Shown: in pieces, positions 7,724-10,749 of the stretch
Numbering within the stretch: the first letter of the stretch is position 1
Layout: each line of letters begins with the position of its first letter
From: an uncultured Gammaproteobacteria bacterium
GTDB taxonomy: Bacteria; Pseudomonadota; Gammaproteobacteria; Steroidobacterales; Woeseiaceae
Length of the DNA: 24,000 nucleotides
NCBI GenBank assembly: GCA_965365575.1
Contig: CBDUCE010000016.1
Coordinates: 452 to 24,451 of the forward strand
Reading direction: 5' to 3'
Notes under the pieces: model-generated
The model's database searches: none
What the model saw: only the letters and a program-made list of their open reading frames with translations
Told to the model about the DNA's origin: nothing
Translations under genes and position numbers: made by a program

Positions 7724-8785
7724 ATGACCAATGCACAGCCTGCAGACGCTTTTACCTTGCTAACGACAAGCCCTCCGGCCCTGTCCGAAGCGCATGCGGC
7801 GAAACTGCTCCGGGAGCATTACGGCCTGGAGGGAATACTCGAATCACAGGACAGCGAACGCGACCAGAACTACCTGCTGCGAACAACGCCGGCGGACAAG
7901 TACGTTCTGAAGATTGCGAATTCCGCCGAGATCGAACCAATCACGGACTTCCAGATAGCCGCTTTGCTGCACCTGGAGAATTCGCCGGTCGCCGGACTGG
8001 TGCCGCGCGTCATTCGAACCGTGGACGGACACACACGGATCCGGGTTTCGGCAGATAGTGGACATGCTCATAGCGCCCGCGTGCTGAGCTGGCTGCCCGG
8101 CGTTATGCGCCGGCCGGACGAACTCAACCCGATCGCTCTCTACCGCATGGGCGAGACACTCGCATCGCTCGGCAAGGCGCTCCGCGATTTCGAACACCCC
8201 GCGAGCGACTACCCCCTGCTCTGGGACATCAAGCAGGCGGAGCGCCTGCGTGACCTGCTTGACACGGTTACCGACACGGCGTTGCGCGATGTCCTCCGTG
8301 AGCACATCGACACATTCGCAGAGGTGGTCTCGCCACGGTTGCCAGCGCTGCGCTGGCAGGTCATTCACAACGACCTGAACCCTGGCAACGTACTCTTCGA
8401 CCCCCGTGACGATCGCAAGGTAGCGGGCATCATCGACTTCGGCGATATGATCGACTCGCCACTCGTCGTCGACGCGGCGGTAGCATCGGCCTATCTTTGC
8501 CGCAGGAACGATGGTTCGCTTGCCGACATGCTCGAGTTCCTGCGCGGTTATAACGCGGTTGCACCGCTCACGGCAGACGAGTTCGCGCTCCTGCCGTACC
8601 TCATCACGATCCGCAGCGTGACTACCCTGGTCATTTCGCACTGGCGCGCGTCGATGTATCCTGACAATCAGGCTTACATCCTGCGTAGCGCGGCTCGTGC
8701 GCTGCATATGCTTAAGACATTCGGGCGAAGGCCGCCAACCGCGGTCACGCGTGAGATGCAGGAACACTGTGGAAACCAAGACTGA
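7724..8785 (+). CDS. APH-fold small-molecule kinase (homoserine kinase type II / hydroxylysine-kinase-like phosphotransferase)
   Basis: N-terminal ...LSEAHAAKLLREHYGL...SERDQNYLL. Catalytic loop VIHNDLNPGNVLF. Metal-binding IIDFGDM. No SD upstream of ATG 7724. Confidence 0.85.
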   Translation: MTNAQPADAFTLLTTSPPALSEAHAAKLLREHYGLEGILESQDSERDQNYLLRTTPADKYVLKIANSAEIEPITDFQIAALLHLENSPVAGLVPRVIRTVDGHTRIRVSADSGHAHSARVLSWLPGVMRRPDELNPIALYRMGETLASLGKALRDFEHPASDYPLLWDIKQAERLRDLLDTVTDTALRDVLREHIDTFAEVVSPRLPALRWQVIHNDLNPGNVLFDPRDDRKVAGIIDFGDMIDSPLVVDAAVASAYLCRRNDGSLADMLEFLRGYNAVAPLTADEFALLPYLITIRSVTTLVISHWRASMYPDNQAYILRSAARALHMLKTFGRRPPTAVTREMQEHCGNQD

Positions 8786-8999
8786 CGATTTGCTCGGGCG
8801 TCGCGACAAGCTGCTCGGGCCGGCCTACCGGCTGAACTACGACGATCCGGTGCATCCCGTTCGCGGCGAAGGTGTGTGGCTGCACGATGCGACCGGGCGC
8901 AAGTACCTCGACATTTACAACACCCTGCCGCGCGGCGGCGCCCTGGCGCGATCGGGCGCGATCGACCCTGACCAAAACATCCTGAAACTGCGCGCATGA
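8769..8999 (+). pseudogene. Remnant of a class-III (AGXT2L/phospholyase-type) aminotransferase gene with most of the body deleted
   Basis: GTG 8769 overlaps the kinase 3' end. The first ~50 aa (TDDLLGRRDKLLGPAYRLNYDDPVHPVRGEGVWLHDATGRKYLDIYN) match the conserved N-terminus of this family. Similarity stops where NVPHVGH would be expected. The ORF ends after 76 aa with ...DPDQNILKLRA, which resembles the family's C-terminal G..NxLKxxPPL motif. Confidence 0.6.
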
Positions 9000-10129
9000 G
9001 CAACACCCCGGGCGAGAACTTCCGAACGATCTGGCTGCATCCCGACGATCCCGCAGCCGTGCAGATCATCGATCAGCGGCGCCTGCCCCATCGCTACGAG
9101 GTCGTCGACCTGAGAAGTCACTCGGACGGGGCCTTCGCCATCCGCGAGATGCTCGTGCGCGGCGCCCCTCTGATCGGCGCGACGGCGGCCTGGAGTGTTT
9201 ATCTCGCGGCTGTCGAAGCGCGGGAGTCGGGGAAGCCGCCGGCAAGCCAGCTGCAATTCATCCGAGCCGCCGCCGACACGCTCGCCGCAACGCGGCCGAC
9301 GGCCGTCAACCTGCGCTGGGGTCTCGATCGGATGCTTGCACTGTTATCGGGCACGATGGACAGCGATGCGCTGGTCGCGCGCCTGCGCGCCGAGGCGAAA
9401 GCCATCTGCGATGAGGACGTCGCGATCTCGCGCAATATCGGTGAGCACGGCGCAGAACTGCTCGCCGCCATCGCGGAGCGCAAGAACGGGGAACCCGTGA
9501 ACATACTGACCCACTGCAACGCCGGCGCGCTGGCGACCGTCAACTGGGGCACCGCGACCGCACCGATGTACGTCGCGCAGGAGCGCGGCATCCCGATTCA
9601 CGTCTGGGTCGACGAGACCCGGCCTCGTAACCAGGGTTCGCAACTGACAGCGTGGGAGCTGGCGCGAAGCGGCGTTCCTCATACGGTGATTGTCGATAAC
9701 GCAGGCGGCCACCTGATGCAGCATGGCCATGTGGACCTGTGCATTACCGGCACAGACCGGACCACGCGCGTCGGCGACGTCGCCAACAAGATCGGCACCT
9801 ACCTGAAAGCGCTCGCCGCGCACGACAACGATGTTCCTTTTTACGTCGCGCTGCCGTCGACGACGATCGACTGGACGATCGCGGACGGTCTGCGCGACAT
9901 ACCGATCGAAGAGCGCAGTGCGTCCGAGGTGACGCACGTGTCCGGCCTCGACGGGAACGACGTGCGCGAAGTGCGAATCGTCGCCGAGGGCTCCCCGGTC
10001 AGGAATGACGCGTTCGACGTAACACCGGCGCGACTCGTCACCGGGCTCATCACGGAGCGCGGCGTATGCGAGGCGAGTGAACACGGCCTCGCCGGCCTGT
10101 TCCCCGAACGCGCGGGCACCGCCGCGTGA
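8996..10129 (+). CDS. mtnA: S-methyl-5-thioribose-1-phosphate isomerase (MtnA / eIF-2B alpha-beta-delta family)
   Basis: IDQRRLPH, VRGAPLIGATAAW, LTHCNAGALAT, TGTDRTTRVGDVANKIGTY, VPFYVALPSTTID. The start ATG overlaps the remnant's stop (ATGA). Confidence 0.88.
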   Translation: MSNTPGENFRTIWLHPDDPAAVQIIDQRRLPHRYEVVDLRSHSDGAFAIREMLVRGAPLIGATAAWSVYLAAVEARESGKPPASQLQFIRAAADTLAATRPTAVNLRWGLDRMLALLSGTMDSDALVARLRAEAKAICDEDVAISRNIGEHGAELLAAIAERKNGEPVNILTHCNAGALATVNWGTATAPMYVAQERGIPIHVWVDETRPRNQGSQLTAWELARSGVPHTVIVDNAGGHLMQHGHVDLCITGTDRTTRVGDVANKIGTYLKALAAHDNDVPFYVALPSTTIDWTIADGLRDIPIEERSASEVTHVSGLDGNDVREVRIVAEGSPVRNDAFDVTPARLVTGLITERGVCEASEHGLAGLFPERAGTAA

Positions 10130-10749
10130 TCGACGAAGGGTATACAAAGTACGAGTGCGAGTGGCGGCAGGCACGCGCCTTGCCCGCGGAAGCTGTCGAC
10201 GAGCTCAACGCGTGGCGCAACCGGCTCCACGAACAGGGCCTCATCGGCTATTACCCCGAGCACGGCGTCGGTTTCGGCAACGTCAGCGTCCGCGAGGGCG
10301 CCTCACACAGGTTCATCATCAGCGGCACGCAGACGGGACACATCGCGCACACCGACGAGAACCACTACGCACGGGTCACTGGGTGCGATATCGACGCGAA
10401 TCACGTCGTCTGCGAGGGGCCGGTACAGGCCTCGTCCGAAGCGCTGACGCACGCCGCGATCTACGCGCTCGACGCCGGCATTCGCGCCGTGGTTCACGTG
10501 CACGATGCGAACCTGTGGCAGCAGTTGATCGATCGTATTCCGACAACCTCCCGCAGCGTCCCCTACGGCACCCCGGAGATGGCGCACGAATTTCAGCGGC
10601 TGTATGCGGATACCGATTTCCCGCTTCAGGGCATTGCCGTCATGGGCGGTCACGACGAAGGCATCGTGTCGTTCGGGAACGATATCGGGCAGGCCGCGGA
10701 GCGCATCCTGCGTTACCGGCAAGGTGCTACAAATACACGGCCGGCGTGA
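10126..10749 (+). CDS. Class II aldolase/adducin-domain protein (MTRu-1-P / 5-deoxyribulose-1-P aldolase candidate, or MtnB-type dehydratase)
   Basis: GTG start overlaps the mtnA stop (GTGA). FGNVSVRE...FIISGTQTG. Acid/base motif ASSEALTHAAIY. Zn ligands VHVHD (HxH) and GGHDEG. Confidence 0.8.
   Translation: MIDEGYTKYECEWRQARALPAEAVDELNAWRNRLHEQGLIGYYPEHGVGFGNVSVREGASHRFIISGTQTGHIAHTDENHYARVTGCDIDANHVVCEGPVQASSEALTHAAIYALDAGIRAVVHVHDANLWQQLIDRIPTTSRSVPYGTPEMAHEFQRLYADTDFPLQGIAVMGGHDEGIVSFGNDIGQAAERILRYRQGATNTRPA

Follow-up and report, generated by a model that had tools for sequence, protein, structure and literature searches.

Ald2, the aldolase that acts on 5-(methylthio)ribulose-1-phosphate and 5-deoxyribulose-1-phosphate (EC 4.1.2.62), belongs to the dihydroxyacetone phosphate (DHAP) shunt of Rhodospirillum rubrum, Rhodopseudomonas palustris, and extraintestinal pathogenic Escherichia coli (ExPEC), and DrdA is the 5-deoxyribulose-1-phosphate aldolase of the drdK-drdI-drdA cluster of Bacillus thuringiensis (PDB codes: 6BTD and 6BTG). 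Many organisms have only the first enzymes of the 5-deoxyribose/DHAP shunt, with an "unidentified aldolase" (PMC6079011), and those that carry mtnP and mtnA but no Ald2 homolog "must employ another pathway" (PMC8102628). Here, we describe the gene pair mtnA-aldX, found in a 24,000-nucleotide stretch of DNA (the window; G000:C16:452-24451) of a 3.23-Mb metagenome-assembled genome (MAG) of 367 contigs and 89% completeness, whose relatives are labeled Woeseiaceae/Gammaproteobacteria. The module resembles the DHAP shunt and 5-deoxyribose salvage (PMC6079011, PMC10986504, PMC5893883), but its third enzyme, AldX, is neither Ald2/DrdA nor MtnB and its entry is noncanonical. Our reading, held with slightly more confidence than an even chance, is that mtnA-aldX is a two-gene module that disposes of 5-substituted ribose-1-phosphates from 5'-deoxyadenosine and, where it is made, from 5'-methylthioadenosine, by aldol cleavage of the DHAP-shunt type.

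AldX shares with Ald2 the position beside MtnA, the genomes without MtnC and MtnD, the class II fold, the glutamate of the SSE motif together with the His triad, and, as predicted for AldX, the products DHAP and an aldehyde (PMC10986504, PMC5893883). However, Ald2 is FucA-like, and AldX falls in another clade. Also, the shunt is entered through Pfs and MtnK in E. coli and through MtnP in R. rubrum, and the MAG has none of these. In the case of DrdA, the metal-bound acid/base Glu76 corresponds to E105 of AldX, and the enzyme is likewise paired with an MtnA-type isomerase (PMC6079011); nonetheless, DrdA is 18% identical to AldX and is a FucA homolog, and its cluster has a dedicated MtnK-type kinase. 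MtnB, the methylthioribulose-1-phosphate dehydratase (TIGR03328; human APIP, PDB code: 4M6R), is a member of the same superfamily that uses the MtnA product as substrate and has a Glu/His3 site, but AldX lies outside its clade, occurs mostly without MtnC and MtnD, and sometimes stands beside canonical MtnB. Finally, the haloarchaeal pair of ribulose-1-phosphate aldolase plus ribulose-1,5-bisphosphate (RuBP) 5-phosphatase also leads from ribulose-1-phosphate to DHAP and an aldehyde downstream of an isomerase of the eIF2B/MtnA family (PMC9700705), although the haloarchaeal aldolase is FucA-like and the isomerase of the window is MtnA, not ribose-1,5-bisphosphate isomerase.

AldX is a separate clade of class II aldolase-fold proteins

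AldX belongs to the class II aldolase superfamily, as it scores 41.3 bits with Pfam Aldolase_II (PF00596), against a gathering cutoff of 22.2. None of the NCBIfam models of the superfamily (MtnB, FucA, AraD, ribulose-1-phosphate aldolase, and others) gives it more than 27 bits, being 20.8 bits for the MtnB model TIGR03328 (cutoff 137.05) and 22.7 bits for the ribulose-1-phosphate aldolase model (cutoff 300), and no member among 76 AldX-family proteins reaches any curated NCBIfam cutoff. By comparison, the E. coli Ald2 from the ExPEC mtnK-mtnA-ald2 cluster scores 364 bits with the FucA subfamily model, and its BLAST alignment with AldX is a 27-residue local match of 24 bits.

A maximum-likelihood tree was built from 45 AldX sequences, 23 canonical MtnB, 15 FucA/Ald2-like sequences, and AraD, the unpublished genomes G206 and G104 being left out. 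AldX, MtnB, and FucA/Ald2 each form a single clade, with support values of 100, 96, and 98, respectively, in the Shimodaira-Hasegawa-like approximate likelihood ratio test. Moreover, MtnB and FucA/Ald2 are closer to each other (support 84) than either is to AldX, which lies behind a branch of about 4.35 substitutions per site. Models, BLAST, and tree agree in leaving AldX out of the FucA-like group of Ald2 and DrdA. AldX is neither an ortholog of Ald2, DrdA, or FucA nor an MtnB, but a separate, widespread, and unnamed clade of class II aldolase-fold proteins. The preliminary description of this locus had likened the gene to Ald2 and DrdA; this likeness holds at most for function and fails for descent. 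The opposite outcome considered there, a firm clustering with MtnB together with a complete mtnC/mtnD pathway elsewhere in the genome, was not seen: the tree places AldX outside MtnB, and mtnC and mtnD were not found in the 89%-complete MAG.

The N terminus of AldX (MIDEGY...) agrees with the family consensus. Across 76 diverse homologs, no variation is seen at residues G51, N52, S54, S103, E105, H109, H124, and H126, and at least 90% keep S104 and H176. In alignments with AraD, Ald2, and MtnB, these conserved residues coincide with the phosphate-binding loops (GNxS and SGT), with the acid bound to the metal, and with its His ligands, the partners of the metal site being D76/H95/H97 in AraD and SSE...HTH in Ald2; the acid position is Glu in AldX, as in aldolases, versus Asp in AraD. 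The G(T/S)PE(M/L)A motif is common to AldX and Ald2 and missing from MtnB, and the segment of 17 to 20 residues that both MtnB and Ald2 have after HxH is absent from AldX. AldX also carries an additional strand-helix at the N terminus, and the N-terminal extension of the family holds invariant residues. The AF2 model of AldX (predicted local distance difference test score 94.6) adopts the class II aldolase fold. Its best structural match in VIA-align is DrdA (PDB code: 6BTD), with a Z of 18.7 and a root-mean-square deviation of 2.3 Å over 168 residues, followed by FucA (Z of 18.0-18.4), YgbL (17.7), AraD (17.5), APIP/MtnB (16.2), and RhaD (approximately 15). A sequence search of the PDB with AldX returned marginal matches only (AraD, E=0.017).

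The family comprises at least 5,000 clusters at 90% identity and 442 clusters at 50% identity (E<=1e-30 in both cases), and it is present in the cultured strains Gloeothece citriformis PCC 7424, Pleurocapsa PCC 7319, and Lentisalinibacter orientalis. Among the named members seen, the public names are "class II aldolase/adducin family protein", epimerase/aldolase, and hypothetical protein, and a search of the ESM Atlas with AldX gave generic names only. Full-text literature searches that covered the DHAP shunt with its aldolases, as well as the pentose bisphosphate pathway, turned up no paper about this clade. One homolog, from Aphanothece hegewaldii CCALA 016 (P0311), is publicly named 'rRNA adenine methyltransferase', a name that seems to be mistaken. 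Also, the AldX gene of one long-read MAG (L056:8001-8637) shifts frame near its 5' end, with open reading frames (ORFs) at 8001-8606 and 8044-8610, probably because of an assembly indel, and it was omitted from the codon analysis.

Conservation of the MtnA-AldX pair

The isomerase of the window is an MtnA, with 417.9 bits for TIGR00512 against a curated equivalog cutoff of 279, compared with 150 bits for the ribose-1,5-bisphosphate isomerase model (cutoff 314), and it shares 56% identity with the ExPEC MtnA from the DHAP-shunt cluster. The three ORFs of the preliminary description (kinase, MtnA, and aldolase-fold gene) exist as it gave them, and its observation that mtnA is translationally coupled to a class II aldolase-fold gene with SSE and HxH...H motifs is borne out: the GTG start of aldX shares GTGA with the TGA stop of mtnA, and the motif residues are conserved in the 76 homologs.

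In the genus, MtnA lies directly upstream of AldX in all 16 relatives with enough contig, mostly as FolD-MtnA-AldX with unrelated genes converging on it from the other side. A species-level genome collection extends this arrangement to 53 of 80 loci, which include Woeseiaceae, Wenzhouxiangellaceae, Chromatiales, Bacteroidota, Omnitrophica, DPANN archaea, and a thaumarchaeon; one Chitinophaga locus is ordered MtnA-AldX-MtnP. Moreover, both enzymes are found fused in a single ORF, once in a metagenomic protein of 572 amino acids with IF-2B and Aldolase_II domains (P0149) and, independently, in an ORF of 583 amino acids from an Omnitrophica genome (L116). In other AldX proteins, the fusion partner is a HAD domain, which scores 243 bits with the model of the haloarchaeal RuBP 5-phosphatase, and in still others it is a reductase of the PanE/ApbA type, which could reduce an aldehyde product. 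Examples of fusions with HAD or reductase are P0152, P0212, and P0165.

Most of the Woeseiaceae and related gammaproteobacteria (L021-L036, L066-L132, e.g. L021:6027-8618) have the order FolD-MtnA-AldX, with genes that often overlap or nearly abut. FolD is methylene-tetrahydrofolate dehydrogenase/cyclohydrolase. In Flavobacteriales, a HAD-MtnA-AldX operon occurs (L120:6255-8591, L129:6256-8597), the HAD of which has glucose-1-phosphatase as best match, with 88-111 bits, under the cutoff.

Regarding co-occurrence, 12 of the 24 genus genomes have AldX together with an MtnP-type phosphorylase, 3 have AldX alone, 2 MtnP alone, and 7 neither. All five AldX-bearing cyanobacteria that were checked have MtnA and MtnP above cutoff. 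In a sample of the class with one genome per family, MtnA is present in 7 of 8 AldX-positive genomes, against a background of 81/150. The unpublished genomes G206 and G104 count in the class-level background tallies of 28/151 for MtnB, 16/151 for FucA-like genes, and 82/151 for MtnA; the AldX-positive genomes are all published.

Supply of the substrate

In the 89%-complete MAG, MtnB, MtnC, MtnD, MtnP, and MtnK were not found, and the window itself has no mtnC or mtnD, as the preliminary description had reported; the RuBisCO-like mtnW was not searched genome-wide. By family models or tblastn, Pfs, SpeE, and SpeD also went undetected in the MAG, as did MtnP and MtnK. As in a DHAP shunt, an MtnA isomerase is clustered with an aldolase-fold enzyme in a genome where MtnB, MtnC, and MtnD were not found; the canonical entry (MtnP, or a nucleosidase plus MtnK) was not found in it either. 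In the wider genus, MtnP co-occurs with AldX.

The MAG does have DeoA, DeoB (a phosphopentomutase match of 66% identity), and DeoC and, on contig C229, a purine nucleoside phosphorylase of the DeoD type that scores 354 bits. From this gene content, a promiscuous DeoD-type phosphorylase would be the likeliest entry enzyme. Cells with radical S-adenosylmethionine (SAM) enzymes must dispose of 5'-deoxyadenosine, and because no spermidine synthase was found, 5'-deoxyadenosine from such enzymes would be the likelier physiological source of substrate in this genome.

Proposed aldol cleavage and competing chemistries

In the proposed sequence of reactions, MtnA would convert the 5-substituted ribose-1-phosphate to the ribulose-1-phosphate, and AldX, predicted to be a 5-substituted ribulose-1-phosphate aldolase, would cleave this product to DHAP and acetaldehyde or 2-(methylthio)acetaldehyde. 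For this, AldX would hold a divalent metal on H124, H126, and H176 and use E105 as a displaceable acid/base; the substrates and the entry enzyme are predictions of the same kind.

The preliminary description had set the pair apart from full methionine salvage, and the comparison of genomes agrees with this, since the module is conserved and mostly lacks MtnC and MtnD. Both MtnC and ARD are missing from 13 of the 15 AldX-positive genus genomes; one closed genome (G005) has MtnP, MtnA, and AldX and is without MtnB, MtnC, and MtnD. Among the 24 genus genomes, ARD and MtnC occur in G008, G018, and G019 only, in each case clustered with a canonical MtnB (205-226 bits), and G008 and G018 have MtnA-AldX in addition to this canonical cluster. 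At class level, canonical MtnB is present in 4 of the 8 AldX-positive genomes and a FucA/Ald2-like gene in none of them. AldX therefore coexists with MtnB, usually without MtnC and MtnD, and never overlaps with Ald2-type genes, which argues that it acts like an alternative shunt aldolase and not like a salvage dehydratase. The fusion to the RuBP 5-phosphatase-like HAD domain also hints at an aldolase, because the product of RuBP 5-phosphatase, ribulose-1-phosphate, is an aldolase substrate (PMC9700705). The fusion to the PanE/ApbA-type reductase is a hint in the same direction.

A separate observation concerns G008, a near-complete relative, where the MtnC next to MtnB seems split into four pieces across frames, one of them with a TGA (G008:C6:1249690-1250942). 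This suggests that a canonical methionine salvage cluster is decaying in a genome that also has MtnA-AldX.

Several points weigh against aldol cleavage of SAM by-product sugars by this module. The clade is known only from sequences and a predicted structure, and sequence alone cannot separate cleavage from dehydration because MtnB and the aldolases share the initial enediolate chemistry, E105, and the His triad. In structure, the lead of DrdA and FucA over APIP is only about 2.5 Z units. Cyanobacteria and several other families of gammaproteobacteria have AldX unlinked to MtnA, and G124, an AldX-positive genome, gave no MtnA match. Moreover, the sublineage of the window (G000, G010, G057, G059) is without MtnP, which leaves the substrate supply unproven, and that DeoD would act on 5'-deoxyadenosine is an assumption based on the broad specificity of hexameric purine nucleoside phosphorylases. 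Finally, the genomes behind the co-occurrence counts are related and the samples small, and for this reason aldol cleavage is proposed as the chemistry of AldX with moderate confidence.

Among the alternatives, it is unlikely that AldX works mainly as a ribulose-1-phosphate aldolase for nucleoside ribose, in a route from DeoD through ribose-1-phosphate and ribulose-1-phosphate to DHAP and glycolaldehyde. This route would be a short-cut of the haloarchaeal non-carboxylating pentose bisphosphate pathway, with the SAM by-products as side substrates. The chemistry would be identical to that of the ribulose-1-phosphate aldolase (PMC9700705), the model of which is weakly matched by 57 of the 76 family members, and both the HAD-AldX fusion and the presence in the MAG of DeoD without MtnP fit such a role. 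Nonetheless, the partner of AldX is a bona fide MtnA and not a ribose-1,5-bisphosphate isomerase, the MAG has in DeoB the normal outlet for ribose-1-phosphate, and AldX co-occurs with MtnP in the relatives and in cyanobacteria.

It also seems improbable that AldX is a non-orthologous methylthioribulose-1-phosphate dehydratase, taking the function of MtnB and feeding methionine salvage through unrecognized downstream enzymes. Weak matches to MtnB models are found in 72 of 76 family members (best E 2.4e-10), the Glu/His3 site is common to MtnB, ARD is present in three of the five AldX-bearing cyanobacteria, and the HAD-AldX fusions, like the HAD-MtnA-AldX operons, are reminiscent of DEP1, the MtnB-MtnC fusion of plants (PMC6079011). 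However, the fused HAD matches RuBP 5-phosphatase and not enolase-phosphatase, and the best match of the operonic HAD of Flavobacteriales is the subthreshold glucose-1-phosphatase given above. Moreover, the absence of MtnC and ARD from most AldX-positive genus genomes, one of them closed, and the coexistence of AldX with MtnB at class level or even with the complete MtnB-MtnC-ARD cluster (G008 and G018) would not be expected of such a dehydratase. Also, AldX falls outside the well-supported MtnB clade, with APIP structurally farther from it than DrdA and FucA.

Less probable still is an undescribed reaction of this fold on the product of MtnA, on ribulose-1-phosphate, or on another sugar phosphate, such as an epimerization or rearrangement, a decarboxylation, or an aldol transfer to another acceptor. 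The long branch that separates AldX from all characterized members would leave room for it, as would the N-terminal extension with its invariant residues, the missing segment after HxH, and the structural scores of AraD and YgbL close behind those of DrdA and FucA. In contrast, the metal ligand is the Glu of aldolases and not the Asp of AraD, the phosphate loop and the His triad are canonical, and ribulose-1-phosphate as the substrate, with a simple outlet, agrees with the context of MtnA, MtnP, and the RuBP phosphatase-like HAD. If an undescribed reaction were true, it would represent an unrecognized branch of SAM by-product and nucleoside-sugar metabolism in Woeseiaceae, many cyanobacteria, Bacteroidota, and DPANN archaea.

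The kinase and its decayed lyase upstream of mtnA

Upstream of mtnA, the preliminary description had placed an APH-type kinase of the hydroxylysine/homoserine kinase kind, distinct from MtnK, and profiles, motifs, and BLAST all confirm this assignment. The kinase scores 101 bits with Pfam APH, and among the NCBIfam models it is matched best by the N-terminal kinase portion of the PRK06148 and PRK06149 kinase-aminotransferase fusions (256 and 186 bits, respectively; PRK06148 positions 5-342); the alternative homoserine kinase models give 58-80 bits, under their cutoffs. The motifs HNDLNPGN and IDFGD are present. The MtnK model TIGR01767 has no match to this kinase and none in the genome, and the BLAST comparison of the kinase with E. 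coli MtnK yields E=0.18.

The interval that follows the kinase holds the remains of its partner, in agreement with the decay proposed earlier. Counted from about position 8760, the stub has approximately 79 codons in one frame, which comprise about 50 N-terminal residues, then a short match at GALARS and roughly 14 more residues from the C-terminal end. When the stub is compared by BLASTP with a genus relative's partner gene, identity is 66% over residues 8-57, with a second piece at residues 389-402; the stub also matches positions 581-635 of the PRK06148 model. The kinase and the stub match the two domains of the bacterial PRK06148/PRK06149 fusions, which belong with human HYKK-PHYKPL and ETNPPL to the hydroxylysine kinase/phospho-lyase pairs, although, unlike in these bacterial fusions, the genes of the window and its relatives are separate and the lyase of the window is deleted. 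The biochemistry of such kinase-lyase pairs was reportedly described by Veiga-da-Cunha and coworkers in 2012, a study cited in PMC8154272.

The lyase gene of the window has undergone at least three deletions. A blastn comparison with three relatives (L054, L055, and L056), which have about 80% nucleotide identity across the locus, shows that about 1.1 kb of the L054/L056 sequence is missing from the window. In L054 and L056, a kinase 71-73% identical to that of the window, an intact class-III aminotransferase-type gene of 436 amino acids, MtnA, and AldX are tightly packed. In L055, the counterpart of window positions 7718-8995 is exactly absent, and mtnA comes straight after the divergent intergenic region. 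L043-L046 likewise have an intact lyase beside the kinase, and the intact partner matches the C-terminal class-III aminotransferase-type domain with 573 bits. Elsewhere in the genus, the kinase-lyase pair lies away from mtnA, in one case beside an aldehyde dehydrogenase, and fused forms of about 800 amino acids also occur. The kinase is absent from the other approximately 65 MtnA-AldX loci, and G010, the nearest genus genome, has no homolog at E<1e-10.

Because the kinase is intact together with its lyase in L054 and L056, both are absent in L055, and the kinase is absent from the other MtnA-AldX loci, the kinase is, on this evidence, a member of its own amino-alcohol kinase/phospho-lyase cassette and an accidental neighbor of MtnA-AldX; hydroxylysine, ethanolamine, and aminopropanol are candidate substrates of the cassette. 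In the sublineage of the window, this cassette sits between the promoter region and mtnA, and in the window itself the lyase is deleted to a stub. The preliminary description had left two options for the kinase, an unrelated neighbor or a recruited sugar kinase, and comparative genomics favors the former.

The kinase is codirectional with mtnA and probably cotranscribed with it; a promoter/terminator scan of the interval between them gave no terminator, and the TGA stop of the stub shares ATGA with the ATG start of mtnA. Since the two ORFs on its other side (6014-6805 and 6882-7562) diverge from it, the kinase opens the transcription unit that holds mtnA-aldX. Its dN/dS (ratio of nonsynonymous to synonymous substitution rates) is 0.18-0.20, with no rate acceleration; these measures cover mostly the time before the loss of the lyase and cannot tell whether the kinase was useful afterward. 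It is highly unlikely that the orphaned kinase was captured as a non-orthologous 5-deoxyribose/methylthioribose kinase feeding MtnA-AldX, since its intact frame and catalytic motifs beside a broken lyase, its probable cotranscription with mtnA, and its occurrence in a sublineage without MtnP and MtnK (the latter itself an APH-fold enzyme) are set against its arrival and absence together with the lyase, its restriction to few MtnA-AldX loci, and the lack in the MAG of a recognizable 5'-methylthioadenosine/5'-deoxyadenosine nucleosidase to make the free sugar. The cassette is a clean snapshot of gene decay, being intact, half-deleted, or absent in genomes that are about 80% identical in nucleotide sequence.

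Genomic surroundings of the module

Table 1. Position and assignment of the genes around mtnA-aldX in the window
Feature	Position	Strand	Remark
OmpR-like regulator	3942-4688	+	
EnvZ-like sensor	4685-6136	+	
ORF without family match	6014-6805	-	
ORF without family match	6882-7562	-	
APH-fold small-molecule kinase	7724-8785	+	Intact ORF, first gene of kinase/phospho-lyase cassette
Class-III aminotransferase-type phospho-lyase stub	8786-8999	+	In-frame; 211-bp "gap" (8786-8995) before mtnA
MtnA	8996-10129	+	TIGR00512
AldX, divergent class II aldolase-fold metalloenzyme	10126-10749	+	PF00596
YjjW activase	10727-11620	-	Convergent to AldX
YjjI glycyl-radical enzyme	11565-13100	-	
EgtC-like amidotransferase	13163-14035	+	
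TonB-dependent receptor	14120-16519	+	

The coordinates of the genes are collected in Table 1. The two ORFs that diverge from the kinase keep open frames in L055 and L056, at about 80% nucleotide identity, and have no Pfam or NCBIfam match; the one closer to the kinase has a low-complexity stretch that weakly matches the repeat region of the ClfA adhesin model. Farther upstream, the window ORFs 458-2167 (minus strand, 569 amino acids) and 2257-3831 (minus strand, 524 amino acids) match nothing in Pfam or NCBIfam at E<=1e-5.

On the other side, yjjW-yjjI encode a glycyl-radical activase and its enzyme, of unknown function, and converge on mtnA-aldX with a 3' overlap of 23 bp. In E. coli K-12 (L177, 4614680-4621602), yjjW-yjjI directly adjoin deoCABD, so that these genes lie beside nucleoside-sugar catabolism genes in two distant lineages, that of the window and that of E. 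coli K-12. The idea that YjjW, as a producer of 5'-deoxyadenosine, is functionally linked to the module was discarded: the neighborhood is kept only in G010 and L054-L056, the genes after FolD-MtnA-AldX are unrelated in most Woeseiaceae, and the turnover of an activase yields little 5'-deoxyadenosine. The next gene encodes a class-II glutamine amidotransferase that is EgtC-like (173 bits, under the EgtC cutoff), and it adjoins the gene of the TonB-dependent receptor, which has a CarboxypepD_reg domain. Both are kept together with the mtnA-aldX-yjjWI block in L054-L056.

Implications

If AldX is the missing aldolase, many annotations of an incomplete 'methionine salvage' would become complete DHAP shunts. 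Also, abundant marine-sediment bacteria would gain a defined route for the carbon of SAM by-products.

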